A DNA stretch of 21,710 bases. Source: Candidatus Iainarchaeum sp. (lineage in GTDB: Archaea > Iainarchaeota > Iainarchaeia > Iainarchaeales > GCA-2688035). This document shows positions 2,349 through 21,708 of this stretch, one piece after another (within the stretch, counting starts at the first letter, position 1; each line of letters begins with the position of its first letter). Where the stretch lies: contig JAQTNI010000020.1 in NCBI GenBank assembly GCA_028713935.1, positions 1 through 21,710 on the forward strand. The letters run 5' to 3'. Both the position numbers and the translations under genes were made by a program. Below the pieces are notes generated by a model. The model saw nothing but the letters and a program-made list of their open reading frames with translations. It had not been told where the DNA came from and did not search any database.

Positions 2349-3253
2349 AACGACTATCAGAGTATACATAACTATTATTTGGCTGCTGAAGTTTCTCGCT
2401 CCCTGCTTTTTACTTTCCAAATCCCGTGACAAGTGCTTTCAGGCCAGTTGAAATCCGAACCGCCCATAAAAGCGCCTTTAAGCCACTTCTATAATGAGGG
2501 GGTTTGGCGATTAAACGCATTCTATTCCACTTTAAGGCTATTTGGGGGCATTATGAAAACTTTTTTTCCATTACAAAAACGCTTATTTTGGCTAATAGAA
2601 GCATTTTAAGCGGGTTAATGGCTAAAATGGCACCATGCGTATAGTCGTATATCCATGATTATCCAGCACTTTTACCTTAGGGAATTATTTTATTTTTAAA
2701 AAAATTCGCATCAAAAAGCCCCTTAGGGGAAGAAGAGGGGTTGCCTTAGGAGCAAACTGGGGGGGGTTTTAGGCCACTTCCAAAACAAAGTTATGTATAC
2801 AAAAGCAGTATTTCCCGCTTTCCAGCCTTTTTAGGGGAAACAGGAAATGCATTAATCCGGATTTTTTAATGCATTCAAAAAACTTCCAGTGCTTTGTGAA
2901 CTATTTTTAACATTGCAAGGCAAAAGCAGCAATTCTTTCCAGAATACTGGCATTTTTATTAAAAAAAAGCAATTTTTTTCAGCCAGATTTTTTAGGGTTT
3001 TTTTTGCAATTGCCCTGGCTCTTTTAGGCATTATCAAGCCGCAAGAAAACAATTCTTTTTCAGTTATTTTTGCTGTTTTTCTTGTTTTTAATGTGATTCT
3101 AATGCCCATTGCTTGTTGTTTTTGGAAGGTTATTGGGGAGCATTAGCTTGCATGGCTGATTGCCCTCACACATTCCTGTCCGGCTGCCTTGTTTTTAAGC
3201 CAAAAATAGTGCAAAAAGATAAATATTATGTATCATTATACTACATAATTTGT
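2349..3253. other. About 900 nt without a convincing ORF; the core at about 2400-2850 is locally G-run and short-repeat rich
   Basis: The six-frame track has no ORF of 60 aa or more between 2349 and 2851, and only a mirror pair of 85-aa ORFs at 2852-3146. Repeats read directly: CCTTAGG x3 (2675-2750), TTAGGGGAA x2 (2723, 2831), TTTA(A/G)GCCACTTC x2 (2476, 2767), G-runs up to G8 (2759-2766), and a 12-nt inverted repeat at 2362-2373 / 2789-2800. Confidence 0.5.
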
Positions 3254-3679
3254 TTATGGCCTTCTTTTAAATCCCCCGATTTTTTTGATTGAGCCTGCAA
3301 GATTTCCTTCCATTCTGATTCCTGCTTTGTCCTCTGATACTATTTTGTGCCCGCGTTTTTCCATAAACTTTGCAAATCTGCTGTTTGTCGTGCCTTCAAT
3401 TTTTGTTATGCCCAGGGTTCTTAAATGGGCTTCTATGCTTTGCCAGAGATTGGCTGCAATTTTTGTTTTGGTTATGTTTGTGAGCTGTACTATTGGCCCA
3501 AATCTAAAATCTCCTACCCAATAAGATTCATTGGTTCTCTGGCCATAAACCAATGCAATAACTCTTTTTTTTCCGTCTATCAGTTCAAACCATATTTTGT
3601 TTCCCGCTTCCGGGGGATATTCCTCTATTCTTAGTTCGTACTCTCCTATTTTTTGAATTGTTTTTTTTGGTTTGATCAT
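3254..3679 (-). CDS. Small conserved protein of unknown function (distant GNAT-like C-terminal pattern); last gene of the ABC operon; paralogue of 15038-15481
   Basis: 141-aa ORF 8 nt downstream of the permease gene, with a GGGT SD-like motif upstream. It aligns by eye with the 147-aa product of 15038-15481 (LRTLGITKIEGTTNSRFAKFMEKRGHKI vs LARKGITKFEGGPANHALAMFMQKRGYGI). Both end in a basic tail. Confidence 0.7.
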   Translation of the reverse strand: MIKPKKTIQKIGEYELRIEEYPPEAGNKIWFELIDGKKRVIALVYGQRTNESYWVGDFRFGPIVQLTNITKTKIAANLWQSIEAHLRTLGITKIEGTTNSRFAKFMEKRGHKIVSEDKAGIRMEGNLAGSIKKIGGFKRRP

Positions 3680-3687
3680 TTTTTACC

Positions 3688-4539
3688 CTATTCTATTCCT
3701 GTTATCCTTTTGTCATAAACCAATAAGTTTTGTTTCAGTTTTTTTTCAACTATTGTTGTTGCTATTGCTATTGTGATTGCTGTTATTGCAATGCTTATTA
3801 TTATTTCGTGCGCTGGCACGCTTGTGATTAGTACCCTCATTGCCATTGTTATTGGCCCTGTTATGGGAATATAGCTTAGTGCGATTGGTATTTCCGATAA
3901 GGGGTTTGAGAAGAAGAAAATTGCTGCCCAGCTTGGTATAAGGGAAACTATTGTTATTATTCCGCTTATCTGGCTTGCCTGCCTTGTGTCTGCCAGCATT
4001 GCGCCTATTCCTGCTATGATTATTGCAAAAAGGGAGTATGCAAGCAGGAAAAAAATTATTACCAATATTACCATTGGGATTGTTATTTCTTCTATGTTTG
4101 CCATCCAGAGTATTTCCGGCATTATTGCTATTGCAACCAGGCTTGAGACTAGCCATGCAATTAATTGCACTATTCCAAGCAGCCCCAATCCGAGTATTTT
4201 TCCAAATAGCAATTGTTTTGTTGAAACGCTTGTCAATAATATTTCTATGAGCCTGTTTTCTTTTTCTTCTACCATTCCGTAAAGCAAAAATCCCGAGCTA
4301 ATGAATATTGCAACTGAAAAAATTGCCCCGAAGATTGATGGCAATATTATTGGCAGGGGGATGGGGGTTTCCATTGCCCTTTTTATTATGACTTCTCTTG
4401 GAAGGTCTGTTCCGAAGCTTGCCTGGATTGCTGTGAGCATTATAAAAAGAATTGGCAATACCAATGCAAATAATAAATAGCCTTTTCTTTTTGCGTTGCT
4501 TTTGAATTCGTGTTTTGCTATTATGATTGTCTTGTTCAT
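3688..4539 (-). CDS. ABC-2 type transporter permease
   Basis: 283 aa. It has one N-terminal TM segment, a loop, and then about five hydrophobic segments. It follows the ATPase gene after 9 nt, with a GAGG SD overlapping the ATPase stop. This architecture is typical of ABC-2 family permeases. Confidence 0.85.
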   Translation of the reverse strand: MNKTIIIAKHEFKSNAKRKGYLLFALVLPILFIMLTAIQASFGTDLPREVIIKRAMETPIPLPIILPSIFGAIFSVAIFISSGFLLYGMVEEKENRLIEILLTSVSTKQLLFGKILGLGLLGIVQLIAWLVSSLVAIAIMPEILWMANIEEITIPMVILVIIFFLLAYSLFAIIIAGIGAMLADTRQASQISGIITIVSLIPSWAAIFFFSNPLSEIPIALSYIPITGPITMAMRVLITSVPAHEIIISIAITAITIAIATTIVEKKLKQNLLVYDKRITGIE

Positions 4540-4548
4540 TTTTTTGCC

Positions 4549-5490
4549 TCAGTTTTTCATCCATTGTTCCGCTTCAACAACCGATAAGAAAATTGATTCA
4601 AGGCTTGGGCTTGTTTCTTCGAATTTTATTATTGCAAACCCGTTTTTTACCAGTTCTTTTAAAAGTTCTTCGGGCTTCAGTTCCATGTCAAAAGCCAGTT
4701 CAAATTCTTTTTTGCCTTTTTGCTTTATTTTTTTAATCCCGGAAATTTTTTTTGCCTTGTTTTCAAATTTGCTGTCTTCCTCGCTTAATTCTATTATTGC
4801 GCTGTTTTCAGAATACCTTTCCTTTATTTCTTTTACAGTGCCATAAAGCACTCTTCTGCCCTTGTTTATTACAATTACTTTATCGCAGATTTCTTCCGCA
4901 ATGCCCATGTTGTGCGTGCTTAAAATAATTGTTTTTCCGTTTTCTTTTTGCTTTTTGATTGTTTCAATTACAAATTTCACGCTTAAAGGGTCCAGGCCTG
5001 AAAAGGGCTCGTCCCAGACAAGCAACAAAGGGTTATGTATAATGGAGCTTATTATTTGCATTTTTTGCTGTGTTCCCTTGCTTAATTCAAATATTTTTTT
5101 GTTTTTATATTCCAGCAGGTTTAATTCTTTCATCAGCCTTGCGGCTTCTTTTGCTGACTCTTTTTCGCTTATCCCCTTTAATGCCCCGAGATATGCCGCG
5201 GCATCAATTGCCTTTTCGTTCTTGTAAAGGCCCCTTTCTTCAGGCAGGTATCCAAACAGGTTTTTTGTTTTTTCAGAAAATTTTTTCTCAAAAATTTCCA
5301 CTTTGCCATCATACTTTTCAATCAAGTTTAGCATTATCCTGATTGCAGTTGTTTTTCCAGCGCCGTTCGGCCCCAATAACCCAAATACATGACCTGTTTT
5401 CACTTCAAAGCTTATTCCATCCAGTGCCTTTGTGCTTCCAAACTGCTTTGAAATTTCTTCCAGCTTTACAGCTGTTTTTTCTTCTGGCAT
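4549..5490 (-). CDS. ABC transporter ATP-binding protein (ABC-2/NatA-like subfamily with a C-terminal accessory domain)
   Basis: 313 aa. It has Walker A GPNGAGKT (nt 5350-5373), the signature LSKGTQQK, Walker B LLVWDEP, and an H-loop STH. About 90 aa follow the cassette. Confidence 0.95.
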   Translation of the reverse strand: MPEEKTAVKLEEISKQFGSTKALDGISFEVKTGHVFGLLGPNGAGKTTAIRIMLNLIEKYDGKVEIFEKKFSEKTKNLFGYLPEERGLYKNEKAIDAAAYLGALKGISEKESAKEAARLMKELNLLEYKNKKIFELSKGTQQKMQIISSIIHNPLLLVWDEPFSGLDPLSVKFVIETIKKQKENGKTIILSTHNMGIAEEICDKVIVINKGRRVLYGTVKEIKERYSENSAIIELSEEDSKFENKAKKISGIKKIKQKGKKEFELAFDMELKPEELLKELVKNGFAIIKFEETSPSLESIFLSVVEAEQWMKN

Positions 5491-10512: not shown

Positions 10513-13500
10513 TCATGGGGCAATGCTTGTGCTGCTGGCATTTTTATCAGTACGCCCTGGAACAGCACTGTTAAAATCTCCCCAGATAAAAATATTCAAA
10601 TCCTGGCTTTCTGTTGTAAAAACAGCTTTGCCAATGTTTGCTGCAGTTGTAGTTGCCTCTGCACAATTTGAATCGGTGTTTCCCGTGCATGCCCATGCCC
10701 AGCCTTCATAAATTTTTGAAACTTTTAAATGCAGTGTTCCTGACAATGCCTCATTCAGGTCAAGCGTAATATTCAAATCAGAGCTGCTTGTGCTTTGGTT
10801 GTCATAAACAAAAAAAGGAATCAGGGAAGTCTGCCCTTCAGGGTCAACCTTGTTCTGGTCAGCAAGCCCGCTTAAATCAGTTGTTTCAAAATATCCTTTC
10901 TGGCATGCCCCGTTTCCAGAGTCAATTCTTCCTTTTCCAGAAGTGCAGCCGCTTGAAGGCAGCATTAATACGAAAGAATAATCCGCTGCTCCGCCTAAAA
11001 TGTGAAAGCTGTTTGCCTGGCTTTTTTTTCCGGTTCCATTATTGTCCTGTGCTGTTCCCTGCACATAATAATTCCCGTCCGCTGTGCCTGTTGAATCCCA
11101 AACATAAGTGCAGTTTGCGTCTTTAGTTGTTGTTGGCAATGAAGCATTGCAGGACCAGTTTGCATAATTTTGCCTCAAAAAAAATGCATTGCTGTCTTGG
11201 GCAGAATTCTTTATTATGTTTAAGTCAATTGTTGCATCTGCATTTGTTCCCGCGCTTGAAATATTGAAATCTATTTGGATATTTCCAGAATATTCGCCAA
11301 CACCTGGGCTTATAATGTCAATGTAGGGGCTGTTTTGGTCGTAATGATAACCAATGCTTCTGTTGTAATCCAAGCGGTTGTCAAATCTCACAGTTCTGCC
11401 CTGAAACCAAGAATCTGTTCCAGTAGCGGAATTTCCATGCCCTTCTAATTGTGCAATTCCATAGGCATTTAACAAAAAATTTCTGTCAGAGCCCTCATCT
11501 ATGAATGGGGTTTGCCCCAAATAAATGCTTTGGCTTCCTTCAGTATAGCCTGCAGTGTTTGTGTCATTTGCCCAGAACGCGTTAAAATTAGCGTCAATGC
11601 TTGAATTGGAAATATTGCGGGTGTAGACTGCTGTTCCAGTGTTGTAAGCAAAAACATTGTTGTAGAAATTGGTTATGCGTGAGGTTCTAGCCGCTTGCAG
11701 AATCCTGTTGCTGATTGCACCTCCAAAAAGATCTGCAGAGTTGTTCACAAAAGTGTTGTTGTGCATGCTTGTTATTGACGCGTTGCCTGCTGTATTAAGC
11801 CCCTGGCCTATCATGCTGATGGCGCCTCCGTTTTTGTCTGCAGAGTTGTTTTGGAAAAGATTGTTGTAAACGGTTGTAATATCTCCGCCAGCACTGTATA
11901 TTGCGCCTCCGTTGCCTGTTGTTGAATTATTGGCAAAAACATTTTTGTAAATGCTTGTGGCAGTTCCCAGATTAAAGTAGGCAGTGCCGTTGGTTGTGCT
12001 GCTGTTATTGGAAAAATTGTTGTCAAAAAAATTTGTAAGGGTAACTGAAGAAAAAAATACTCCCGCAGATGTTGCTGTGGAGGAATTGTTGTAAAAAACA
12101 TTTCCAAAAAAATTTGTAACAGTATTGGTGCTGAATTTTACCGCAGTGCCGCTTCCACTGTTGTTGCCAAAAAGATTGTGGTTAAAGTTTTGGATAACCC
12201 CATTTGAAACCAAGACACAAGGCCCAGTGTTGTTAACAAACGTGTTCCCATTAAAATCTATAATCGAAACACTAACACCAGCCAAATTTATTATTCCACT
12301 CGTGGGTGGGGGGCTGTTTCCTGAAAAAGTATTGTTGTAAATACCTGATATTGGGAAATTGGAATAAATCGCGTTTCCATAAAGACTTGTTGAAACATTC
12401 ACAAAATTTGTATCGTGAATGGAATTAATTGCCCTTTCCAAATAAATGCCATTAGAAGCATAGGCAATGTTCAAGTCGAAAAAATCGTTGGCGTCAGCAG
12501 TAACCCCTGCATCAGTGGTAAAATAGATAGCGGTGTCATAATCCCCAGCTACCGGAGCTCCGCTGCTGCCGGGTGCATTCGTGCCGACGGAATTGTCATT
12601 CATGCTGGTAAAAACAATCTTATTGGCGCTTGTTCCCTGGGCCTTCAAAACGCCGCCATTGACGACACTCAAAAAGGCGTTTCCGCCCGCTTTGAGTTTT
12701 ACAACTACACAGGGATTTATTGTCAACTGGCAGTCTGAAACATCAGCATTGCCATCCACGTTCAAAAAATAGGTGTTGCCCGCAGTCCAAACCTGATTAT
12801 TGTCAGGGGTATTGCAGATGGCTTGGCTTAGTGTAACCAAATCCTGCAATTCCAAGTAATCACCCAGGCCTGTTTTGTCTGTTGAGAACCACATTGAAAC
12901 AATGTTGTTTGCAATGGAAATTTTGTATGGCTTGAATCCCGCGTTCATTTCCTGCGAAAAATCCCTTGCCGCAGAATTGAACAAAAGGCTTGTTCCCAAA
13001 AAAACATTTTCGGAGTCAAAAATAATCTCTTTTGTCTCCCCGTAAGCCAATTTCTCCCAATTAAATTTTGTTTCCAAATGGCTGTAATTGCAGTCGCATT
13101 CCGGATTGTAATCTGTCAGTAAAACCTGCTGGACCAGGCCGAATTTGGCGTATTGCCCCGAGTCCTTTAATTGTGTATCCAATGAAAAATAAAATTCGCT
13201 TGGATTCCATGTGCCGTTAATTGTTTTTGGCTTGATTTTGTGTTTCAGGAGGAGACTTTTTCCTTTTTTTTCAGGCAAATAATCCAGGTCCAGCTCGTTT
13301 TTTGCGACTTCAATTTTTGTATTCTTGTAATACGCGCTGAAATCCGGCTGTATCCCGGAGTTGTTCAAAATAATCTGGCCCTTGTTTTTACTGTCATATT
13401 CTATGTCAATTGCCCCCACTTCTATAAGGCCAGGTGTTTCGTTTGCAGGCCCCTGGGTTTTTTCAGCGCCAAAAACATTCAATCCAGGGGAGATTTTAGC

Positions 13501-14991
13501 TTCTGAAACAATGCCCCATTCTGTGCATTCCTTAATGCCGGAATCCCAGCCATTGCAGGCATAAATTTTTCCTGAAAATTCCTGTTTGAACTGAACAGAA
13601 CCGCTTTCCATTTTGAATGGGCTTGATATTCCAAAAGCATGCAAAGTTATTTTCTGTTCCGCAGGGGCTTGTGCATTTGAAGCGCTTTCAGCAATGCCGC
13701 CTTTTGCATTTCCAAAATCCTGAAATTCAAGCAGTGTGCCATTTCGGCCAATTTCAATGCCCCTGAAAAAAACACTGGAAAAATCCCTGTTTTCAAATGC
13801 CAGCAAAGCATTGTAAATTCCATTTTCAATTTCAACTGGCTCCGAAGCCTCAATTATTTTGTTTTCATTGAGGTCAAACAATGTTAGGCTTGCGGGGATA
13901 TTTGCAGGCATTATTAAAAATTTTTCTTTTTCCTGTGCAACCCCATTTTGGTCGCTGGTTGCAGGCTTTAGCCAGGCAAATGCAATTGGAGATTCTAAAA
14001 ATTCCATTGAAATGCTGTTTTCTGCAGAATCAATTATTTCCCAGTTTCCAATGCATTTCTGCTGTTCTTTTTCCCATGATTGGCATTTTGCCAGCTTTGC
14101 ATTGTTTTTGTTCTCAATCGTTACAATGCTTTTTTGTTCCCGCATGCCAAAATCCATTTCCGCGCTTTCTGCAGCCTCAAATTCATTTTCCCCAATGATT
14201 ATTTTTTCCTGCAAAATATTTTGTTTCAGCACTGCAATTGCCCTGTTCCGGTTCAATAAAAATTCCGGAAGAATTATTGCTTTTGCAGGGCCTTCAAAGG
14301 CATCAAGGTTTGCATAATATGTTCCCGCAGGAATTATTTTTGCATCCCCACTCAGCGTGTAAAGCTGGTTTAGCGTTGCAATATCCCTGATATAAACAAG
14401 GCTCAGAAAATTTGGCGGGCGTATTTCAAACAAGGCTTCTTCAGGAACTTGCACAGGAGAAGCCTCTTCAGGAAATTGCAGGGGCTTTTCAGGACTGCCG
14501 GTTTGCAGCATGTTTTCATCCGCAATAACTGCATTACTGTCACTGTTTCCTGTTTCTTCGCTGTTGTTTTCCTGAAACAATGTGTTTTCAACTGTTACTT
14601 CAAAAAATTTTTTTGAACAAGCAGTTTCATAGCACGCTTCAATTTCAAACGCATAATTTCCATCGGCAACTGTGTTGGAATCCCATTCAGCAATCCAGTT
14701 GTTTTCCGCTGACAAGTTTTTTTCAAAATGAGTTATGTTTAAGTCAGCCTGCAATAGCCTTACAACTGCGCTTGAAACAGTTTCAGGATTTTCAGGCTTT
14801 ACAATTATTACCATTGAGCCCTGTATTTTGTCGCCTGAAAAAGGCGCAACAATTGCAATTTCAGGCGCCTGAATGGCATTAATTTGGGGTTCAGGGCTGT
14901 TGGAATCTATTTGTGCAAAAGAGACTACTAGCGGAAAAATAAGCAACAACAAGGCAGTCTTTTGGATAAAACCAATTTTTTTTAAATTCAT
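10513..14991 (-). CDS. Giant secreted adhesin-like protein: signal peptide, Ig-like domain, acidic linker, two tandem Cys-pair domains, parallel beta-helix with PMP-type repeats, second Ig-like domain, C-terminal S-like module
   Basis: 1492-aa uninterrupted ORF. The signal peptide is MNLKKIGFIQKTALLLLIFPLVVSFA. The Ig-like signature WDS-x-x-x-ADGNY occurs twice (nt 14584-14865 and 10996-11328). The beta-helix carries GGAI and F-x-x-N motifs. There is no C-terminal TM segment or PGF-type sorting signal. Confidence 0.9.
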   Translation of the reverse strand: MNLKKIGFIQKTALLLLIFPLVVSFAQIDSNSPEPQINAIQAPEIAIVAPFSGDKIQGSMVIIVKPENPETVSSAVVRLLQADLNITHFEKNLSAENNWIAEWDSNTVADGNYAFEIEACYETACSKKFFEVTVENTLFQENNSEETGNSDSNAVIADENMLQTGSPEKPLQFPEEASPVQVPEEALFEIRPPNFLSLVYIRDIATLNQLYTLSGDAKIIPAGTYYANLDAFEGPAKAIILPEFLLNRNRAIAVLKQNILQEKIIIGENEFEAAESAEMDFGMREQKSIVTIENKNNAKLAKCQSWEKEQQKCIGNWEIIDSAENSISMEFLESPIAFAWLKPATSDQNGVAQEKEKFLIMPANIPASLTLFDLNENKIIEASEPVEIENGIYNALLAFENRDFSSVFFRGIEIGRNGTLLEFQDFGNAKGGIAESASNAQAPAEQKITLHAFGISSPFKMESGSVQFKQEFSGKIYACNGWDSGIKECTEWGIVSEAKISPGLNVFGAEKTQGPANETPGLIEVGAIDIEYDSKNKGQIILNNSGIQPDFSAYYKNTKIEVAKNELDLDYLPEKKGKSLLLKHKIKPKTINGTWNPSEFYFSLDTQLKDSGQYAKFGLVQQVLLTDYNPECDCNYSHLETKFNWEKLAYGETKEIIFDSENVFLGTSLLFNSAARDFSQEMNAGFKPYKISIANNIVSMWFSTDKTGLGDYLELQDLVTLSQAICNTPDNNQVWTAGNTYFLNVDGNADVSDCQLTINPCVVVKLKAGGNAFLSVVNGGVLKAQGTSANKIVFTSMNDNSVGTNAPGSSGAPVAGDYDTAIYFTTDAGVTADANDFFDLNIAYASNGIYLERAINSIHDTNFVNVSTSLYGNAIYSNFPISGIYNNTFSGNSPPPTSGIINLAGVSVSIIDFNGNTFVNNTGPCVLVSNGVIQNFNHNLFGNNSGSGTAVKFSTNTVTNFFGNVFYNNSSTATSAGVFFSSVTLTNFFDNNFSNNSSTTNGTAYFNLGTATSIYKNVFANNSTTGNGGAIYSAGGDITTVYNNLFQNNSADKNGGAISMIGQGLNTAGNASITSMHNNTFVNNSADLFGGAISNRILQAARTSRITNFYNNVFAYNTGTAVYTRNISNSSIDANFNAFWANDTNTAGYTEGSQSIYLGQTPFIDEGSDRNFLLNAYGIAQLEGHGNSATGTDSWFQGRTVRFDNRLDYNRSIGYHYDQNSPYIDIISPGVGEYSGNIQIDFNISSAGTNADATIDLNIIKNSAQDSNAFFLRQNYANWSCNASLPTTTKDANCTYVWDSTGTADGNYYVQGTAQDNNGTGKKSQANSFHILGGAADYSFVLMLPSSGCTSGKGRIDSGNGACQKGYFETTDLSGLADQNKVDPEGQTSLIPFFVYDNQSTSSSDLNITLDLNEALSGTLHLKVSKIYEGWAWACTGNTDSNCAEATTTAANIGKAVFTTESQDLNIFIWGDFNSAVPGRTDKNASSTSIAP
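11557..12354 (-). repeat. About ten degenerate coding repeats (23-34 aa each) of the type (I/V)T-x-(F/Y)-x-NN-x-F-x-NNS...GGAI; polymorphic-membrane-protein-like parallel beta-helix rungs
   Basis: Read from the translation: GIYNNTFSGNS, IDFNGNTFVNNTG, IQNFNHNLFGNNSG, VTNFFGNVFYNNSS, LTNFFDNNFSNNSS, SIYKNVFANNST..GGAIY, TVYNNLFQNNSADKNGGAIS, SMHNNTFVNNSADLFGGAIS, ITNFYNNVFAYNTG, IDANFNAFWANDT. At DNA level this shows as a recurring ATTGTTGTA on the + strand. Confidence 0.7.
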
Positions 14992-15037: not shown

Positions 15038-15481
15038 TCATAATTTTTTTCTAAGTTTTTTTGGCATCAATCGCACTGGCCTTGGGCGCGCCTTTGGAAA
15101 ATTTCCCGTAATCCTGAACACTCCAGCCATTGAATCTTCAATGCCATAGCCTCTTTTTTGCATAAACATTGCAAGCGCATGGTTTGCAGGCCCGCCTTCA
15201 AATTTTGTGATTCCTTTTCTTGCCAGGCATCTTTCCACCTGCACCAACAGATTGTCAGTTATCCTGGCTGCAGTTATTTTTGGAATAAATTCGCTGACAG
15301 AATATTTATCCGCTGTGCAGGCATCGCCTATGATTTTGCATTTAAAATTTGCTATGCGAATCCCTTTTTGGCCAAAAACCTTAAATGAAACTGTTAGTGC
15401 CTCTTGTTCCGCGCTTTCAGAAATTTCCAATTTATACGCCCCAAAAGGAATTATGCGCGGGTTTTTTTCATCCACTGCCAA
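15038..15481 (-). CDS. Small conserved protein of unknown function (distant GNAT-like C-terminal pattern); last gene of the isoprenoid operon; paralogue of 3254-3679
   Basis: 147 aa from a TTG start, 4 nt after the IDI-2 stop, with AGGTAGGG upstream. It aligns by eye with the 141-aa protein. The basic tail is KARPRPVRLMPKKLRKKL. Confidence 0.7.
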   Translation of the reverse strand: MAVDEKNPRIIPFGAYKLEISESAEQEALTVSFKVFGQKGIRIANFKCKIIGDACTADKYSVSEFIPKITAARITDNLLVQVERCLARKGITKFEGGPANHALAMFMQKRGYGIEDSMAGVFRITGNFPKARPRPVRLMPKKLRKKL

Positions 15482-15485
15482 AACC

Positions 15486-16517
15486 CTACCTGCTTTTCGT
15501 TATTTTAACTTTTTTCAGTTCTTTCAGGCTTTTTGCCCCGCTCAAAAACATTGCAATTCTCAATTCTTCAATTATTTTTTCCAAATATTTTTTCACGCCT
15601 TCTTTTCCCGCTTCCTGCTGTGCCTTTAGCACAGGCAGCGCTATTCCGGCCATATCCGCGCCCAGTGCAATTGCCTTTGCAATGTCAAGCCCAGTCCTTA
15701 TCCCGCCTGAAGCAATTATTTTTTTCTTGAAGGCTTTTCTGCATTGCACAATGCTTTCAGCTGTTGCTATTCCATAATCCCAGAATGTTTCCCCCAGCTC
15801 CTTGTTGCCTCTGAGGGAGTCTATTCCTGTCCAGCTTGTTCCGCCTGCGCCTGCAACATCAATTGCTTTTATTTTTGTTTTTGCAAGCTTTTTTGCAACA
15901 GAAAACCCAATTCCATGGCCGACTTCTTTCACATAAACAGGCTTGCTTAATTTTGCGCTTATTTTTTCAATTGCATTCAAAACTCCTTTGAAATTTGTGT
16001 CTCCTTCTTTTTGCAGTGCTTCCTGTGCTGCATTCAGGTGAATTGCGAGCGCATCTGCCTTTATCTCTTCAATTGCTTTTTCTATTTTTTCAATCGGGTA
16101 CTGTAATAATTGGGCTGCGCCAATGTTTCCCGCAAGAAAAATTTTTGGCGCAATGTCCCTTACAAAATAAGTTTCTTTCAAAGCGGGATTTTCAATCATT
16201 GCCCTCATGCTTCCCAATCCCATTCCAATTCCAAGCTCTTCACACGCGCCTGCAATGTCCCTGTTTATTTGCCTTGCTTCTTCTGTTCCCCCTGTGATTG
16301 CCTCAACAATTATTGGTGCAGAGAATTTTTTTCCAAGGAATTCCGCCTGCAAGGAAATTTCTTTTTTGTTTATTTCGGGCAGGGTTTTGTACTCCAAATC
16401 AATTCCCTTGAAGCCGATTTTCTCTAAGCCAGTTGTTTTTTCCCTGAACTGGACATTCTCGCTGCACGCAATTTTCAAGTGCTCTGTTTTCCTATTCTGG
16501 GTTTGCATTTTCATCAC
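15486..16517 (-). CDS. fni: Type 2 (FMN-dependent) isopentenyl-diphosphate delta-isomerase
   Basis: 343 aa. N-terminal RKTEHL, then EAITGGTEEARQINRDIA, GLGSMRA, AGNIGAAQL, ALAIHLNAAQEALQKEGDTNF, VKEVGHGI, IDVAGAGGTSW and ASGGIRTGLDIAKAIALGA all match the IDI-2 family in order. The start could be GTG 16517, ATG 16514 or ATG 16508. Confidence 0.93.
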   Translation of the reverse strand: MMKMQTQNRKTEHLKIACSENVQFREKTTGLEKIGFKGIDLEYKTLPEINKKEISLQAEFLGKKFSAPIIVEAITGGTEEARQINRDIAGACEELGIGMGLGSMRAMIENPALKETYFVRDIAPKIFLAGNIGAAQLLQYPIEKIEKAIEEIKADALAIHLNAAQEALQKEGDTNFKGVLNAIEKISAKLSKPVYVKEVGHGIGFSVAKKLAKTKIKAIDVAGAGGTSWTGIDSLRGNKELGETFWDYGIATAESIVQCRKAFKKKIIASGGIRTGLDIAKAIALGADMAGIALPVLKAQQEAGKEGVKKYLEKIIEELRIAMFLSGAKSLKELKKVKITKSR

Positions 16518-16539
16518 TTGTTTTTACTATTAATTGCTT

Positions 16540-17235
16540 TTACCTTCTTTTAATTCTTCTTTGTTTTCTTAAAGTCGCTCGCAATTCTGCATCAGGGTTT
16601 ACTGCCTTGAACCTGATTGTTGTTCTTTTTATTGTCCTGCGGGTTCTTCTGATTGGCAGGTTTCTTGTCATTGCCAAATCTGCAACAGTATCCCCAAAAT
16701 ACTTTGTTTTTTTTGGGTCTAATCCAAACCTGCCAATTATTGTTCCAACTGCATTTTGCTTGAAATTTTTTAAATCCCGCGAAGAGCATTCCCCAGTATA
16801 TTTTCCGTTTCTTGCCCTGAACCAAAGTCCATACACATAATCAAGGCCAAGCAGTTCAATTAATGGGCTGACACATTCTATTGGCGATAGGCTTACTGCT
16901 GCAACAATTCCTCGTTTTTTTTCGTGTGCAACTAGTGCTTTTGCGTTTGAAAAAAAATTGCCACTATTTTTTCTAACCAATTCCCTTGCAAATTTTGTAA
17001 CCTGTGCATTGCTTTGCCCTTTTATTCCTTGGGCATATGCTTCAACAACTTCTTTTGCTGCCTCTGCATATGGTGTTTTTCCGGCTTTGTATCTTGCCAG
17101 TGCGGAATCTATTTTTCTCAATTCTTCTTCTGAGAAAATCCCCTTGCTTGAAAGTAAATGGGCAAGTTCTACAATAAAATAGCCTTTGTACAATGTTCCG
17201 TCCACATCAAAAATCGCACCAGATTTTCCCGCCAT
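16540..17235 (-). CDS. HAD-superfamily hydrolase, subfamily IB-like (phosphoserine-phosphatase-like fold)
   Basis: 231 aa. Motif I is IFDVDGTLYKGYF, followed by a helical cap region, motif IV-like FGDTVADL, and a late AVNPDAEL as in HAD-IB. The C-terminal 42 aa are unusually Arg/Lys-rich. It starts 1 nt after the IPK stop. Confidence 0.8.
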   Translation of the reverse strand: MAGKSGAIFDVDGTLYKGYFIVELAHLLSSKGIFSEEELRKIDSALARYKAGKTPYAEAAKEVVEAYAQGIKGQSNAQVTKFARELVRKNSGNFFSNAKALVAHEKKRGIVAAVSLSPIECVSPLIELLGLDYVYGLWFRARNGKYTGECSSRDLKNFKQNAVGTIIGRFGLDPKKTKYFGDTVADLAMTRNLPIRRTRRTIKRTTIRFKAVNPDAELRATLRKQRRIKRR

Positions 17236-17236
17236 T

Positions 17237-18043
17237 TTACAACCTTATTTTTGTTCCTTCCACTTCTTTTCCAACCAATGCATTGAAAACATTTTCAGGC
17301 TTTGTTGCATCAAAAACAATTGTTTCTATTCCTGAAGACATTTGCCTTATTTTCAATAGTTTTCCCTTCATTCCCTGTGTAACATCAATTGCTGTTGATT
17401 CTCCCGCCTGTTCAATTATTTCATCAAAATTCTTCTTATTAATCAATTCTATTCTCTTCGCATTCTTTTCCTTTTTTGGGTCTGCAGTGAAAACTCCCGC
17501 AACATCTGTTCCCAAAAAGATTTTTTTTGCTTTCAATTTTTTTGCTATGTTTGCAATTGTTGCATCCCCTGAAACAACGCTTCCTTTCAGCTTTATGTCG
17601 GGGCACATTGTGCCGTTAAGCACTGGTATGATTTCTTGGTTCTGCCTGAATAATTCTTCAATAACTGAAATGCCCTGTGAAGAGATTTTTTTGTTTTTCT
17701 GGATAGTAATTGCAGATGCTGCAAGCGGATATGCAAGCAATCCTTCTTCCCAGAAAATCCTGCTTACTTCCTGGTTCAAAAAATTGCAGTCTATTGCTAC
17801 TTTGCAAAACCCTTCAAAGTCTTTTGCGCTTTTCAGGCCATTGTTTATATTGTAATTTGCAACATTTGTGTGCCCGAAAGGGCCTGCGCCATTGACCATT
17901 ATCAGCCTGAATTTTTTTTCTTTCCTTGCCCTTGCAATTTCCTTTGCAGTGTTTCTTACTGCCCCTTCATTTACCCTGAACTGGTTCTCGGCCTTGTTTG
18001 TGCAAACAGAACCGCCAAGCTTCATTATGTATAAATCAGGCAT
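17237..18043 (-). CDS. ipk: Isopentenyl phosphate kinase (amino-acid-kinase fold)
   Basis: 268 aa. IMKLGGSVCTNK and LIMVNGAGPFGH match the IPK signature (KLGGS ... HGGGSFGH). The C-terminal half is amino-acid-kinase-like, with VSGDA and GTDVAGVFTADP. A GGTG SD lies upstream. Confidence 0.9.
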   Translation of the reverse strand: MPDLYIMKLGGSVCTNKAENQFRVNEGAVRNTAKEIARARKEKKFRLIMVNGAGPFGHTNVANYNINNGLKSAKDFEGFCKVAIDCNFLNQEVSRIFWEEGLLAYPLAASAITIQKNKKISSQGISVIEELFRQNQEIIPVLNGTMCPDIKLKGSVVSGDATIANIAKKLKAKKIFLGTDVAGVFTADPKKEKNAKRIELINKKNFDEIIEQAGESTAIDVTQGMKGKLLKIRQMSSGIETIVFDATKPENVFNALVGKEVEGTKIRL

Positions 18044-18046
18044 TCT

Positions 18047-18679
18047 TTACACCTTTAATTCTAATAATTCTTTCAAACTATTTATTACTTTGTCTGCGCC
18101 GGATTTTTTTAATTCCTGCTTTGTAAATCCTGATGCTGTTATCCCTATTGCAAGCATGTTTGCATTTTTTGCTGTTTGCATGTCAACTGGAAAATCCCCC
18201 ACATAAGCGCATTCTGCAGGCTTAGCTTCAAGTTTTTCTGCAATCATTAGAAGGGTGTTGGGCTCTGGTTTTGGCGCTTTTGTTTCTTCCCCCGCAACAA
18301 TTATTTCAAAAAGACCCAGCAATTTTTCCGGAAAAACAATTTGATTTCTTGGGGAGGCGCTGAAAATTCCTAATCTGGCTTTTTTCTTTAATTCTTCTAA
18401 TATTGTTTCTTCTTTCGGGAATAACAATTTTTTTCCAACAATCAGTTTTTTGTAAATAGCAATTTTTTTTTCTGTTATCTTTTTATAATCCACTTTTGAC
18501 TTGTGCTTTTCAAGGCCCTGCCTTATTACTTCGCTTGTAGGCTTGCCAATCATTTCTTTTATTTCTTCTTTTGAAAAATGCGCTCCTGCTAATTCGAATG
18601 CCTGCTTGTATGCTTCCAAGTGATAGGGCACATCGTTTACAAGCACGCCATTGAAATCGAAAATCAGCGCTTTCAGCAT
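18047..18679 (-). CDS. HAD-superfamily hydrolase, subfamily IA-like (beta-phosphoglucomutase / phosphatase-like), with motif I reading D-F-N
   Basis: 210 aa. Motif I is LIFDFNGVLVND, motif II is IFSAS, motif III is KPKPEP, and motif IV is VGDFPVDMQTA. It starts 2 nt after the upstream stop. Confidence 0.8.
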   Translation of the reverse strand: MLKALIFDFNGVLVNDVPYHLEAYKQAFELAGAHFSKEEIKEMIGKPTSEVIRQGLEKHKSKVDYKKITEKKIAIYKKLIVGKKLLFPKEETILEELKKKARLGIFSASPRNQIVFPEKLLGLFEIIVAGEETKAPKPEPNTLLMIAEKLEAKPAECAYVGDFPVDMQTAKNANMLAIGITASGFTKQELKKSGADKVINSLKELLELKV

Positions 18680-18681
18680 AA

Positions 18682-19887
18682 TTATGTTTCAATTCCTTTT
18701 TGTTTCAAAATTGCTTTCACATTCTCGTTGAGGATTGTTCCTTTCTGGCTTATTGGCAGTACTTTTGGTGCGCCTGCCTTGTCTACAAAGTGCACTGGCC
18801 AGTCTTCTGAATGCCCAAGCCCTTTTACATAGTCTTCAATTATTGTTTTCACTTTGTTTGCTTCTTGTTTTGTTGTTATTATTGCCAGGCTTGGCCCTGT
18901 GTCCATTGAGGCGTAGCATGGAATGCCTTCTTTTCTCATTAAATTTATTTTTCTTAAAATGTCCAATGTTTCAGGTTCCCAGCTGAAAAAGCTTCCTCCG
19001 CTTACAAGGATGTGAAACAAATTCAATGAATCAAGTTCTGCAATTTTTCCAATTGCCGCAACATCATCCGCCTTCACTGCTTCCATCAACTTGATGCATT
19101 TTTCTGGTTTTTTCATTGCCCAATCCTGGTACCATTCGCTTTTTTCCCCGCTTCCATGGGCGTCCTCTGTTTTTATTTTTGACGGGATAGGCACTGTAAT
19201 TACTTTCAGGTTTGTTTCTTCTTTTTTGTCAAATCTCACTCCATAACTTTCAAGCGGCTTTATTCCTTTGTAGCTCAGCCATATGCTCCAGCCTCCTGCT
19301 GCGCTGCTTGTTCCGCTTCCTGAAAAATACCTTGCTAATACGCTTAAAAATCTTGAATTTGTTTTTAATTCCGGCATCAGCGCTTCAGTGAAAGCCATTG
19401 CTGATGCGCCTGCTGCTGCAGCGCTTGTTCCAAGGCCTTTTCCTTTTGCCTGAACCTTTGCAATGTTTTCTGAGACAAAAACAAATTTTGTTTTAATTCC
19501 TGTCCATTCATTCAATCTTTCAAGCATTACATCCATTCCCTTCAAGCCTTTTGTGTCTTCAATCAGTTTTCCATCCACAAGGAAAACATTTTCTTTCAGG
19601 CTTTTGTCAAACTTCAGATAGGTTACTGCTTTTGTCGTGTCATGGCACATTTTTATTTGCGGAAAATAGGCTATTCTTTCTGCCTTGTCAGCATTTCCCA
19701 TGTATTTTTCTATTCCCATTATTGGATAAGCTTCCACCAGAACTTCTGCGTCGCTTTCTTTTACTTTTGGTATTTTTGGCCATTTTTCTTCTTCCCAGCC
19801 AATATTTTTTTTCAGCCATGCTTTGCATTTTTCGTTTCCTTTTTTTATTGCCAGCAATTCTGTTTTTGTCAAATCTGTTGCAGCCAT
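18682..19887 (-). CDS. GHMP-superfamily mevalonate (mono/di/bis)phosphate decarboxylase-family protein; exact activity (PMD, MDD, mevalonate-3-kinase or bisphosphate decarboxylase) not resolvable by eye
   Basis: I moved the start to the ATG at 19887 because a perfect GGAGG lies 7 nt upstream. The track start is a TTG at 19911, and the trimmed product is 401 aa. Family motifs in order are IMGIEKYMG (cf. IKYWGK), GKGLGTSAAAAGASAMA (GHMP motif II), ARYFSGSGTSSAAGG (cf. R-x-GSGSACRS) and YASMDTGPSLAI (cf. T-x-DAGPN, with the Asp retained). Confidence 0.85.
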   Translation of the reverse strand: MAATDLTKTELLAIKKGNEKCKAWLKKNIGWEEEKWPKIPKVKESDAEVLVEAYPIMGIEKYMGNADKAERIAYFPQIKMCHDTTKAVTYLKFDKSLKENVFLVDGKLIEDTKGLKGMDVMLERLNEWTGIKTKFVFVSENIAKVQAKGKGLGTSAAAAGASAMAFTEALMPELKTNSRFLSVLARYFSGSGTSSAAGGWSIWLSYKGIKPLESYGVRFDKKEETNLKVITVPIPSKIKTEDAHGSGEKSEWYQDWAMKKPEKCIKLMEAVKADDVAAIGKIAELDSLNLFHILVSGGSFFSWEPETLDILRKINLMRKEGIPCYASMDTGPSLAIITTKQEANKVKTIIEDYVKGLGHSEDWPVHFVDKAGAPKVLPISQKGTILNENVKAILKQKGIET

Positions 19888-19894
19888 TTTATCT

Positions 19895-19899
19895 CCTCC
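19895..19899 (-). promoter_or_regulatory. Shine-Dalgarno GGAGG for the decarboxylase-family gene
   Basis: CCTCC on the + strand at 19895-19899, i.e. GGAGG 7 nt upstream of the ATG at 19887 on the minus strand. Confidence 0.6.
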
Positions 19900-19918
19900 T
19901 GCTTTCTTCAAAATTTGT

Positions 19919-20776
19919 TTAAAACAATTTTTCAGGATTGTTCAAGAATGTTAGAGCTTGTTCTCTGAATTCAGAGTCTTCCCTTGCTATTGGCTTATAG
20001 CCTTCAATTGCTTCTTTTAATCCTGTTCCTTTTTTTCCAGCTTTGTACATTTCCCATGCAAGATTTACTGCCCAAGGTTCGCTTTTTTCCAAACCTTGCC
20101 TAAACATATTATGCATTTCAAATTGGCGCTGCATATATTTTTGCATAAAACCAGGGTATCTGTCTGGTTTCCAATGTTCTTTTGTCATTGCATTGGTTCT
20201 CTCAATAATTATTTTTATTGCCAACTCTCTTTCTACTTGTCCGGGTTCTGTTTGTGGTCTGCGTCCCTGTTCTTCTGCTACCCTTTTGATATTCTCCTTT
20301 TTTTGTGCTTGGAACAAGCTTCTTCTAAAAGCCCCAATTGCGCCAAATTTTGGGACATCGTCAGCCAATGCAACGCTTGCCCAGACAAGATTTTTCTTAA
20401 ATTCTCCAGGAATTTTGTCATGTAGCCTTGCTGCTTTTACAATTCTTGCAACTGGCCTTTTTCCAAATCTTTTTTCAATTATTTTTTGAGTAAAATCTGC
20501 GCTTTCTTCTGCATGCGGGGCATTTGAAACATGCCGTATCCTGTCATGCACAAACCCGCCTATAAATGCTTGGCTCTGAATTGGTTTTGTTGCGCCAAGC
20601 AGTTGCGCAATTCTTTCCGCAAGCAAGGCAGTTACTCTATTGAATTGATAATCATGGGCTGGAATTCTGCCGCCAACATGTTCAACAAATCGCATATACC
20701 TGTCAATTATTATTTTTCTTTTTGGCCATCCAGACCTGGCGCTTAGACGCCCTTGCCTTGTTACTTCTTTAGTCAA
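19919..20776 (-). CDS. Probable HD-domain metal-dependent phosphohydrolase (function uncertain)
   Basis: 285 aa from a TTG start (no in-frame ATG until residue 28). The spacing H-x(37)-HD-x(10)-H-x(34)-HD-x(21)-DD (PAHDYQ ... GGFVHDRIRH ... HAEESADF ... ARLHDK ... LADDV) resembles the HD-domain pattern. The rest is helical and basic. The CDS call is firmer than the family call. Confidence 0.55.
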   Translation of the reverse strand: MTKEVTRQGRLSARSGWPKRKIIIDRYMRFVEHVGGRIPAHDYQFNRVTALLAERIAQLLGATKPIQSQAFIGGFVHDRIRHVSNAPHAEESADFTQKIIEKRFGKRPVARIVKAARLHDKIPGEFKKNLVWASVALADDVPKFGAIGAFRRSLFQAQKKENIKRVAEEQGRRPQTEPGQVERELAIKIIIERTNAMTKEHWKPDRYPGFMQKYMQRQFEMHNMFRQGLEKSEPWAVNLAWEMYKAGKKGTGLKEAIEGYKPIAREDSEFREQALTFLNNPEKLF

Positions 20777-20802
20777 AAAAACACTTTTCAGAAATTTGTC
20801 AA

Positions 20803-21708
20803 TTATTTATTCATTTCTTCTTTTTTTCCTTTTGCCTTGTGCCTTTCTTCTTCAAATTTTTTTTGCATTTCCGTTTTTCCAATTTCTTTTCCAGCAAGCT
20901 CATTCAATTTTTTTACTTTCTCAATTACTATTCCAATGCACTCGTCAACTGCCTTGTCCCAGTTGTCTGTTGCAACAACAGGAATTCCAAATTCTTTTGC
21001 TTCTCTTTCCAGGTTTTTCTGGAAAAAAGCATAAGTGTCGAGCGCTTCCAACAATCTTTGCGCTCCGCCTTTTAAATGTGTTTTTTTGATTCTGTTTTTT
21101 ACTCTTTGTTCCCATTTTTCCCTGCTTTTCAGTGTTAAAACAATCGGAATAAAGCTCGGGTGTTTCAAGGTGTCTTCATGGTACTGGGAAGGCAAAAAGT
21201 GCAGGTATTCATAAATCATGCTTTCCCCGTCCCTGATGCCCCTGTCTGCAACTAATCTTTCCATTGCCTGGTTTGCAAGCTTTGCCTGTGCATTGAATCC
21301 CTTTATCATGTTTTCTTCTGTTTTTTCGCCGAATATTTTCCATGTTTCATACATTGAAACAAAAAAAGCAGGTTCTTTTTCCTTGTCAATGAATTCCCTT
21401 AATGCTGCCCTGAAAGCATCCCCGCCCATTACGTCGCCTAAACCAAAAGCAGTTGCTATTTCCCTTGACATTGTTGTTTTGCCAATGCAGGGAAAAGCAG
21501 AAATTAATGGCAGCACAGGCTCTTTTAATTTTTCTTTTCCAATTAATTCCTTGTATTTTTTCCAAGTCAAATACCTGTCAAGGAATTTTTTGCCTTTTTT
21601 TTCCAGTTCTTTTTCAACTGGTTTTTTTGAATTCAGTATTTGGCCTATTTCTTTCAGGCTTAGCCCTGTGCATAGCAACAGATCGTCTTTTTCATTGTAA
21701 ATAGTCAT
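20803..21708 (-). CDS. 2-phosphoglycerate-kinase-family (COG2074-like) P-loop kinase
   Basis: 301 aa. The P-loop is AFPCIGKTTMSREIATAFGL, followed by GGDAFRAALREFI, FFVSMYETWKIFG, GFNAQAKLANQAMERLV and GESMIYEYLHFLP. This matches by eye the 2PGK family order G-x-x-G-x-GKST ... TD-x-(I/L)R ... SSY-x-A(W/Y) ... EGVHL-x-P. The start ATG at 21708 lies 2 nt from the window edge, so its upstream region is unseen. Confidence 0.75.
   Translation of the reverse strand: MTIYNEKDDLLLCTGLSLKEIGQILNSKKPVEKELEKKGKKFLDRYLTWKKYKELIGKEKLKEPVLPLISAFPCIGKTTMSREIATAFGLGDVMGGDAFRAALREFIDKEKEPAFFVSMYETWKIFGEKTEENMIKGFNAQAKLANQAMERLVADRGIRDGESMIYEYLHFLPSQYHEDTLKHPSFIPIVLTLKSREKWEQRVKNRIKKTHLKGGAQRLLEALDTYAFFQKNLEREAKEFGIPVVATDNWDKAVDECIGIVIEKVKKLNELAGKEIGKTEMQKKFEEERHKAKGKKEEMNK

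Follow-up and report, generated by a model that had tools for sequence, protein, structure and literature searches.

A probable Thermoplasma-type mevalonate gene cluster with interleaved phosphohydrolase genes on an Iainarchaeota contig

Which route to isoprenoid precursors is encoded by a compact array of eight genes at one end of a 'Candidatus Iainarchaeum' contig, in which enzymes of the lower mevalonate pathway are interleaved with phosphohydrolases and accompanied by a kinase resembling 2-phosphoglycerate kinase (2PGK)? The DNA analysed here (the window) is the whole 21.7-kb contig JAQTNI010000020.1 (21,710 nt), part of a metagenome-assembled genome (MAG) of this DPANN archaeon. In the original prediction, made from the letters of the window, the choice was put as one between the Thermoplasma-type route and a new one. 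The Thermoplasma-type route was found to be the best reading, and a new route is not needed for the data. The array is probably the distal half of a Thermoplasma-type mevalonate cluster, with activities assigned from homology, phylogenetic placement, synteny and active-site residues. Its genes are listed below in the direction of reading.

20803..21708, minus strand: P-loop kinase, like mevalonate-3-phosphate 5-kinase (M3P5K); 301 aa, full length
19919..20776, minus strand: divergent HD-superfamily hydrolase; 285 aa, TTG start
18682..19887, minus strand: GHMP protein, decarboxylase-like, in the clade of the decarboxylase of mevalonate-3,5-bisphosphate (MBD); 401 aa (ATG), or 409 aa if started at the TTG at 19911
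18047..18679, minus strand: HAD-IA hydrolase; 210 aa
17237..18043, minus strand: isopentenyl phosphate kinase (IPK); 268 aa
16540..17235, minus strand: HAD-IB phosphatase; 231 aa
15486..16517, minus strand: type 2 isopentenyl-diphosphate isomerase (IDI-2); 343 aa
15038..15481, minus strand: small protein, tentatively of GNAT-like fold; 147 aa

The kinase carries the Walker A motif AFPCIGKT. On NCBIfam models it scored 122 bits for 2PGK (PRK04220, cut-off 343) and 103 bits for M3P5K (PRK12339, cut-off 250). Its open reading frame (ORF) was taken as complete because homologues of 289-311 aa cover 100% of the query; the best database match was 92% identical, and the exact sequence was not among the matches. 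A profile of 18 family members was searched against 1.84 billion representative proteins. The nearest matches outside the family were proteins of ~205 aa that score 208-260 bits on the M3P5K model, one of them (P0132) above the cut-off of 250, and proteins reaching the 2PGK cut-off ranked after these M3P5K-type proteins. A ~65-aa N-terminal domain of the window kinase aligns in part with 2PGKs and is absent from the ~205-aa proteins. Trees, here and below, were built by neighbour-joining on Kimura distances, with reference M3P5K and 2PGK sequences recognised among the profile matches by their NCBIfam scores. On a 209-column kinase core, the kinase family and the M3P5K-type proteins were split from the 2PGK-like proteins in 99/100 bootstraps. 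A natural fusion protein, P0127 (547 aa), also among these nearest matches, joins an N-terminal M3P5K-type domain (213 bits) to a C-terminal mevalonate-3-kinase (M3K) domain (369 bits), and would link the two activities in Rosetta-stone fashion. A search of the PDB returned no sequence relative of the kinase.

These results bear out the earlier suggestion that a gene resembling 2PGK belongs to the mevalonate-phosphate kinases; it forms a clade apart from true 2PGKs, and the grouping with them that had been named as evidence to the contrary was not seen. The statement behind the suggestion, that Ta0762 of Thermoplasma acidophilum had been annotated as 2PGK-like, was sound. Proteins at or near the M3P5K cut-off also match 2PGK models. 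Ta0762 is the M3P5K used in published assays (PMC5177888). By its placement, the window kinase is a predicted long-form homologue of M3P5K of the Ta0762 type.

The GHMP protein matches PF22700 (MVD-like_N) and scored 168 bits on the NCBIfam MBD model, 150 on that of phosphomevalonate decarboxylase (PMD) and 81 on that of MDD, all below cut-off. Its best PDB match was the MBD of Picrophilus torridus (PtoMBD, 7T71, E 5e-29), followed by the PMD of Anaerolinea (4e-24). PtoMBD, the DPANN proteins of ~400 aa and the Asgard proteins of ~400 aa formed one clade (199/200 bootstraps), and a separate PMD/DMD clade (200/200) did not include the window protein; the reference sequences of the MDD family in this tree (PtoMBD, AthPMD, TaM3K) were taken from PDB alignments as printed, which leaves them slightly truncated. 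The catalytic Asp is kept (SMDTGPS, against TSDTGTS in PtoMBD), the P-loop reads KGKGLGTSAA, and ~50 extra N-terminal residues correspond to an extension of PtoMBD that forms helix alpha-1 and is lacking in the structures of DMD and PMD (PMC9254496). Both the Asp and the N-terminal extra had been noted in the original prediction and were confirmed, the extension being a published feature of MBD. The two identities proposed there, M3K or PMD, were replaced by membership of the MBD clade. The retained Asp argues against M3K, since this residue is conserved in DMD, PMD and MBD and not in M3K (PMC9254496).

One substitution sets part of this clade apart. Every aligned sequence of M3K, PMD, DMD, PtoMBD and the Asgard proteins has the Arg of the G-S-x-x-R-S motif. 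In an alignment of the window protein with 49 other MBD-clade sequences, 31 of DPANN or metagenomic origin have another residue in its place, Ser in 28 (Ser194 in the window) and Gln in 3. The same 31 sequences have Lys at the second Ser of an N-x-S-x-S-type motif (K79 in the window), and the 19 that keep the Arg, PtoMBD and the Asgard proteins among them, all have Ser there. This perfect covariation of Arg loss with Lys gain suggests a relocated positive charge in the putative active site.

The remaining evidence comes from relatives, namely 54 related loci examined with flanks of +/-10 kb on long contigs. The genome scan relied on patterns specific to DPANN and Asgard kinases, so loci of Thermoplasmatales or methanogens were not among its results. 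The closest relative found (L001/L006) is 89-90% identical to the window at the DNA level in the kinase and GHMP genes and 73-90% in the core genes. Its cluster starts with HMG-CoA reductase, HMG-CoA synthase, thiolase, a DUF35-type gene, genes for two uncharacterised proteins and a HAD, and a 320-aa MDD-family gene that precedes the kinase; the kinase is followed by a 284-aa protein, a GHMP protein of 401 aa and IPK, and then, after two small ORFs, by IDI-2 and the large surface protein that the window has as well. The same core gene order was found in a second relative, on a contig of 82.6 kb. The window contig has 2 nt left upstream of the ATG of the kinase, and the matching intergenic gap in L006 measures 6 nt. 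As the clusters of relatives continue upstream of the kinase, the eight genes are read as the distal half of a longer mevalonate cluster, and the proposal that the kinase heads the operon was abandoned.

The 320-aa protein scored 135 bits on the NCBIfam M3K model and 67 on that of PMD, and its best PDB match was Ta1305, the M3K of T. acidophilum (E 3e-20). M3K-like proteins of the relatives have Thr or Gly at the position of the decarboxylases' catalytic Asp; the 320-aa protein reads Thr-Ala-Gly-Gly at this site and aligns there with Thr275 of Ta1305. The M3K-like proteins and Ta1305 formed a clade in 200/200 bootstraps. In every locus with enough upstream flank, with the exception of the Micrarchaeota contig L020, the M3K-like gene adjoins the kinase; the adjacency was seen in Iainarchaeota, Aenigmatarchaeota, Heimdallarchaeota, one 'Bathyarchaeia' MAG and further metagenome lineages. 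The second decarboxylase paralogue for which a search had been advised was thus found upstream of the kinase in relatives, and there is none in the window.

Upstream of the M3K-like gene, a family of 330-470-aa proteins was observed in Iainarchaeota and Aenigmatarchaeota (L001:4895-6298, L032:5793-7088, L011, L012, L014, L017, L019 and L027), the L032 member of which matches a class I SAM-methyltransferase Pfam family. In one lineage (L010:12191-14386), a gene for an AglB/STT3-type oligosaccharyltransferase directly follows the trio of M3K-like, kinase and decarboxylase genes, a hint that isoprenoids from the pathway may go into glycan carriers of dolichol type.

The downstream enzymes were assigned above their family cut-offs: IPK, the gene of which is syntenic in relatives, at 186 bits (NF040647 IPPK_Arch, cut-off 120) and IDI-2 at 399 bits (TIGR02151, cut-off 281). 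In the proposed pathway, mevalonate would be made from HMG-CoA by the products of upstream genes, which were seen in relatives only. Its 3-OH would be phosphorylated by the M3K-like MDD paralogue, the gene for which would lie off the contig end by synteny. The P-loop kinase (20803-21708) would then phosphorylate the 5-OH of mevalonate-3-phosphate to give mevalonate-3,5-bisphosphate, and the MBD-clade protein would remove the 3-phosphate and decarboxylate the product to isopentenyl phosphate (IP). IP would be converted to isopentenyl diphosphate (IPP) by IPK, and IPP to dimethylallyl diphosphate (DMAPP) by IDI-2. The HD, HAD-IA (D-x-N), HAD-IB and GNAT-like genes would be accessory to this core chemistry.

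The Thermoplasma-type route has been established biochemically in Thermoplasmatales (PMC5177888, PMC9254496). The same four enzyme families, each in the clade of the characterised enzyme or of proteins at or near the M3P5K cut-off, are represented there by Ta1305, Ta0762, Ta0893, the P. torridus MBD and IPK, and the series is alike in detail: an M3K-like protein without the catalytic Asp (here seen in relatives), an MBD-like protein with the Asp and the N-terminal extension, and then IPK. The two systems differ in several respects. By their numbers, Ta0762, Ta0893 and Ta1305 are at separate loci, in contrast to the single operon-like array of the present genes. The window kinase has ~300 aa with an extra N-terminal domain, as opposed to ~205 aa. 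Unlike the Thermoplasmatales MBD, the window protein has Ser for the carboxylate-binding Arg, has Lys in N-x-S-x-S and retains the Ser/Asn adenine contacts. The host belongs to a DPANN lineage of non-acidophile type, phosphohydrolase genes are interleaved, and the enzyme activities here are predicted ones.

A survey of 2024 described M3K, M3P5K and MBD homologues from Micrarchaeota, Altiarchaeota, Aenigmatarchaeota and Heimdallarchaeia (PMC11052028). The families, and the inference of a Thermoplasma-type route outside acidophiles, are the same as here, and the loci examined here from Aenigmatarchaeota, Micrarchaeota and Heimdallarchaeota overlap with that distribution. The survey gives each of its five Iainarchaeota MAGs a score of 0 for M3K, M3P5K and MBD, and the single Aenigmatarchaeota match is without MBD and IPK (PMC11052028, Table S3); the gene order, the accessory hydrolases and the active-site swap are not described there. 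A literature search returned no paper linking Iainarchaeota to the Thermoplasma-type route. The pathway of Haloarchaea and Chloroflexi, made up of mevalonate kinase (MVK), PMD and IPK, likewise passes through IP and IPK. The decarboxylase of that pathway belongs to the nearest sister family, some ATP-site residues of which are kept in the window protein. It differs in that no MVK is present in the cluster, the GHMP protein lies outside the PMD/DMD clade (200/200), and M3K-like and M3P5K-like genes are present, the former in relatives.

Phosphohydrolase genes recur in the related clusters. In other Iainarchaeum genomes, the slot between kinase and decarboxylase is occupied by a protein of ~255-319 aa (L001:9147-10001, L003:1860-2621, L032:10872-11783) that matches no family and has HAD motifs I-IV (LFLDIDGVFT, FITAR, GDxxxED). 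Homology of the slot protein (L001:9147-10001) to the HD-like protein of the window was considered and rejected by comparison. From its motifs, this one slot is occupied by a HAD in some genomes and by an HD protein in the window. The order MBD, HAD-IA, IPK of the window is repeated in L038; in L036 a HAD-IA gene directly follows MBD at the contig end, and in L039 an HD-like gene directly follows the decarboxylase. Where upstream flank was seen in Iainarchaeal clusters, a HAD gene (~293 aa) lies ahead of the M3K-like gene. In Aenigmatarchaeal clusters the decarboxylase is followed by one or two HADs, and the M3K-like gene is preceded by a NUDIX gene. Two NUDIX genes follow IPK in a Diapherotrites MAG, and NUDIX genes lie directly after IPK in L002 and L003.

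In 17 DPANN loci, phosphohydrolases accounted for 18/52 non-core genes in or flanking the clusters (12 HAD, 3 NUDIX and 3 HD by Pfam). In a set of 150 other genes from these loci, four matched PF00702, two of these being P-type ATPases; HD and NUDIX were absent from the top-25 Pfam list of the 150 and were taken as <=2 each, so that the total was taken as <=8/150.

A plant couple of IPK and a Nudix hydrolase reportedly controls the IP/IPP ratio, a finding said to be that of Henry and colleagues in PNAS in 2018. The pairing of a phosphohydrolase with IPK is shared with the present clusters (the NUDIX genes of L002 and L003), whereas the window has HAD and HD proteins and no NUDIX, and the parallel is an analogy of flux control only.

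The four accessory genes of the window fill variable slots between conserved core genes. In a DNA comparison with L006, the kinase, GHMP, IPK, IDI-2 and surface-protein genes were found, and no counterpart was found for the HD, HAD-IA, HAD-IB and 147-aa genes. The HD-like protein alone gave no Pfam or NCBIfam match. A profile of its five-member family matched the HD hydrolase of PDB 2PQ7 (E 4.5e-12), 4/5 members matched Pfam HD, and H41, H77-D78, H88, H119 and D139 are invariant in the family. The long form of the ORF is supported by residues 11-27, which are conserved with P0114. Two database relatives only were found for this protein; its relatives sit in other mevalonate clusters (two copies in L031, and L014, L017 and L039). 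The AF2 model is all-helical and of low confidence (pLDDT 51). The product of 19919-20776 is predicted to be a divergent metal-dependent phosphohydrolase of the HD superfamily.

The HAD-IA protein matched PF13419 (HAD_2, E 5.8e-29) and TIGR02009 (100 bits). Motif I reads FDFNGV, in which the nucleophile Asp is kept and Asp+2 is replaced by Asn, and motifs II-IV are present; the replacement places phosphatase activity in doubt. D-x-N is also found in the Iainarchaeal orthologues of L036 and L038, and D-x-D in Aenigmatarchaeal orthologues. A sequencing error was considered as the cause of D-x-N and rejected, as orthologues share the motif. The HAD-IB protein matched TIGR01488 (56 bits, cut-off 45), TIGR01490 (83 bits) and PF12710 (E 4.9e-17). 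Its motifs I (FDVDGT) and IV (GDTVAD) are canonical; the 54 related loci yielded no member of its family, and it was seen only on the window contig. It has a very basic C-terminal tail (...RRTRRTIKRTTIRFK...RKQRRIKRR), and Arg/Lys-rich tails end several cluster proteins (window 16540-17235, 15038-15481 and 20803-21708; L001:6337-7221).

The 147-aa protein matched no Pfam or NCBIfam family. A single-sequence AF2 model (pLDDT 72) gave GNAT acetyltransferases as all top Foldseek matches (3FIX, E 1.8e-5, TM 0.49), and a GNAT-like fold is proposed tentatively on this model. Homologues follow IDI-2 in L008, L032 and L035; in L032 and L035 they lie between IDI-2 and an ABC transporter pair. A 141-aa paralogue in the window (3254-3679, minus strand) is located beside ABC transporter genes (3688-5490). 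The family may thus be associated with the transporter and not with the pathway, and the 147-aa protein is probably not a pathway enzyme.

Several observations weigh against assigning the cluster to the Thermoplasma-type route. The M3K-like gene of the window's own genome would lie just beyond the contig end, a placement by synteny only. Both the kinase and the GHMP protein score far below the equivalog cut-offs of their proposed families (103 against 250 bits for M3P5K, 168 against 560 for MBD). The GHMP protein keeps the adenine-contacting Ser-x-Asn of ATP-dependent homologues that is lost in PtoMBD, which we take to be S94 and N96 in S. epidermidis numbering, so ATP-independent MBD chemistry is not assured. 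In published work, MBDs are described as keeping an Asp/Lys/Arg triad and losing ATP-binding residues (PMC5177888); the window protein departs from both descriptions, with Ser194 for the Arg and the adenine contacts in place. Asgard members of the MBD clade have been argued to be PMDs (PMC11052028). Type-B loci (L009, L011-L014, L017, L018, L026, L027 and L031; for example L014:9027-13615 and L031:5261-11977) have the M3K-like/kinase pair followed by a DMD/PMD-type gene (TIGR01240 310 bits; 1e-87 to Anaerolinea PMD) and MVK (TIGR00549 205 bits), with no MBD-clade gene and no IPK nearby. One published Aenigmatarchaeota MAG similarly has MVK, DMD, M3K and M3P5K and is without phosphomevalonate kinase, IPK and MBD (PMC11052028, Table S3). 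The P-loop kinase of type-B clusters might stand in for phosphomevalonate kinase. In the type-A locus L050, a partial MVK-like ORF follows IPK. From this ORF and the type-B pairing with MVK, the M3K-like/kinase pair may have another role.

Such points would be accommodated by the main rival, a haloarchaea-type or hybrid pathway, in which the MBD-clade protein is an ATP-dependent PMD fed by an MVK encoded elsewhere, and the M3K-like/kinase pair has another function, for example as a bypass, or the kinase is a non-orthologous phosphomevalonate kinase or mevalonate 5-kinase. The retained Ser-x-Asn and the GHMP-like P-loop GLGTSAA, the closeness of the PMD score (150 bits) to the MBD score (168), the interpretation of Loki-type clade members as PMD (PMC11052028), the MVK-containing type-B relatives and the ORF of L050 all fit such a scheme. 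It is nevertheless distinctly unlikely. The window protein clusters with characterised MBD and not with characterised PMD (199/200), and the adjacency of M3K-like and kinase genes, together with the M3P5K-M3K fusion, points to a pair acting in sequence on mevalonate. No MVK was found in the window, as had been noted before, or, in the closest relatives, within the 21-25 kb of cluster surroundings that were examined, and two Micrarchaeota MAGs with the full set have none (PMC11052028, Table S3). A genuine 2PGK serving cyclic 2,3-diphosphoglycerate and adjacent to isoprenoid genes by chance is highly improbable. The kinase has its top NCBIfam score on the 2PGK model (122 bits) and resembles methanogen 2PGKs in P-loop superfamily, in length and in a partly alignable N-terminal region, but it forms a clade separate from proteins at or above the 2PGK cut-off (99/100). 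No cyclic 2,3-diphosphoglycerate synthetase was found in the window or among the annotated neighbours of relatives, and the linkage is to mevalonate genes, with an M3K-like gene in every upstream-flanked relative except Micrarchaeota L020.

With the Thermoplasma-type assignment retained for the core genes, the role of the hydrolases was weighed separately. That the HD and HAD genes are unrelated passengers, housekeeping or mobile, in permissive junctions of a packed DPANN genome is a possibility of real weight, though it is not the favoured one. The four accessory genes are missing from L006 while the core is 73-90% identical, positions vary between lineages, HAD-IB is unique to the window contig, gaps are short throughout this contig and its GC content is uniform. 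Minimal operons of M3K-like, kinase, decarboxylase and IPK genes free of hydrolases exist as well (L041, L047-L052), from which it follows that the hydrolases are not part of the core chemistry. The HAD-IA protein of the window is without the general acid/base Asp, a point against the favoured explanation. Against the passenger explanation, the frequency of phosphohydrolase genes within or beside the clusters is about nine times that in the rest of the loci (naive Fisher p 6e-7, a value that ignores relatedness among loci). At least six non-orthologous families (HAD-IA, HAD4b, HAD294, the slot HAD, HD and NUDIX) recur in three phyla, the slot between kinase and MBD is filled by a HAD in some genomes and by an HD protein in another, and the orders MBD-HAD-IA-IPK in L038 and MBD-HAD-IA in L036 come with a conserved D-x-N.

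Absence of the HAD and HD genes from the operon of relatives, named earlier as evidence against a link with the pathway, was thus seen in L006, and HAD, HD and NUDIX genes recur in three phyla. Of the view that the hydrolases are embedded among pathway genes, the association of HAD, HD and NUDIX genes with these clusters is real, as judged from recurrence and the MBD-HAD-IA order; it does not extend to the window's own four genes in L006. From the recurrence we infer that the hydrolases may act on phosphorylated intermediates or products of the pathway, in flux control or repair, with IP/IPP, mevalonate phosphates and prenyl diphosphates as candidate substrates. A stronger reading, in which the DPANN route is a distinct variant with a rewired decarboxylase active site and HAD, HD and NUDIX proteins as working pathway parts, is doubtful. 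Examples of such parts would be an IPP/IP or prenyl-diphosphate phosphatase set against IPK, a repair phosphatase or mutase for mevalonate 3-phosphate against 5-phosphate, or a D-x-N HAD acting on a phosphoanhydride.

The order and coordinates of the eight minus-strand genes given in the original prediction were confirmed in the ORF list, and its family assignments hold (by Pfam and NCBIfam, and by the family profile for the HD protein). The gaps of 26, 31, 2, 3, 1, 22 and 4 nt were also confirmed with the GHMP gene starting at ATG 19887, the start used in public gene calls (401 aa); with TTG 19911 the gap between the HD and GHMP genes is 7 nt in place of 31. The short gaps are not special to the cluster, as tight packing is general across the contig, with unrelated neighbour genes separated by 8-71 nt. 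An Rfam scan of the window returned no RNA family and ARAGORN no tRNA. Exact-sequence look-ups of the window GHMP protein (409-aa form) and IPK gave no match. Directly downstream of the cluster lies a gene for a 1492-aa secreted or surface protein (10513-14991, minus strand), which is syntenic in L006 at 67-80% DNA identity, more divergent than most pathway genes, and whose L001 homologue has a weak Pfam beta-helix match. A stretch of ~900 bp (2349-3253) is without an ORF of >85 aa, a tRNA or an Rfam match, which is unusual in so packed a contig.

The route itself was already known. What is new, as predicted from sequence, is its occurrence in Iainarchaeota. New details, of which the importance may be large or small, are the order of the genes, the phosphohydrolases interleaved with them and the Arg/Lys swap. 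The assignment would extend the Thermoplasma-type route to Iainarchaeota, in which the published survey had none of its genes (PMC11052028). The route was originally interpreted as adaptive to extreme acidity, and a DPANN cluster of this kind would weaken the acid-only view. A whole pathway from HMG-CoA reductase to IDI-2 in one DPANN cluster, as in the relatives, would support the view that some DPANN archaea make their own isoprenoid precursors. Experimental handles are offered by a putative soluble long-form M3P5K, a predicted decarboxylase with a natural Arg-to-Ser and Ser-to-Lys swap, and the set of phosphohydrolases. If the latter do act on pathway intermediates, they would add a new layer of control or repair to isoprenoid synthesis.

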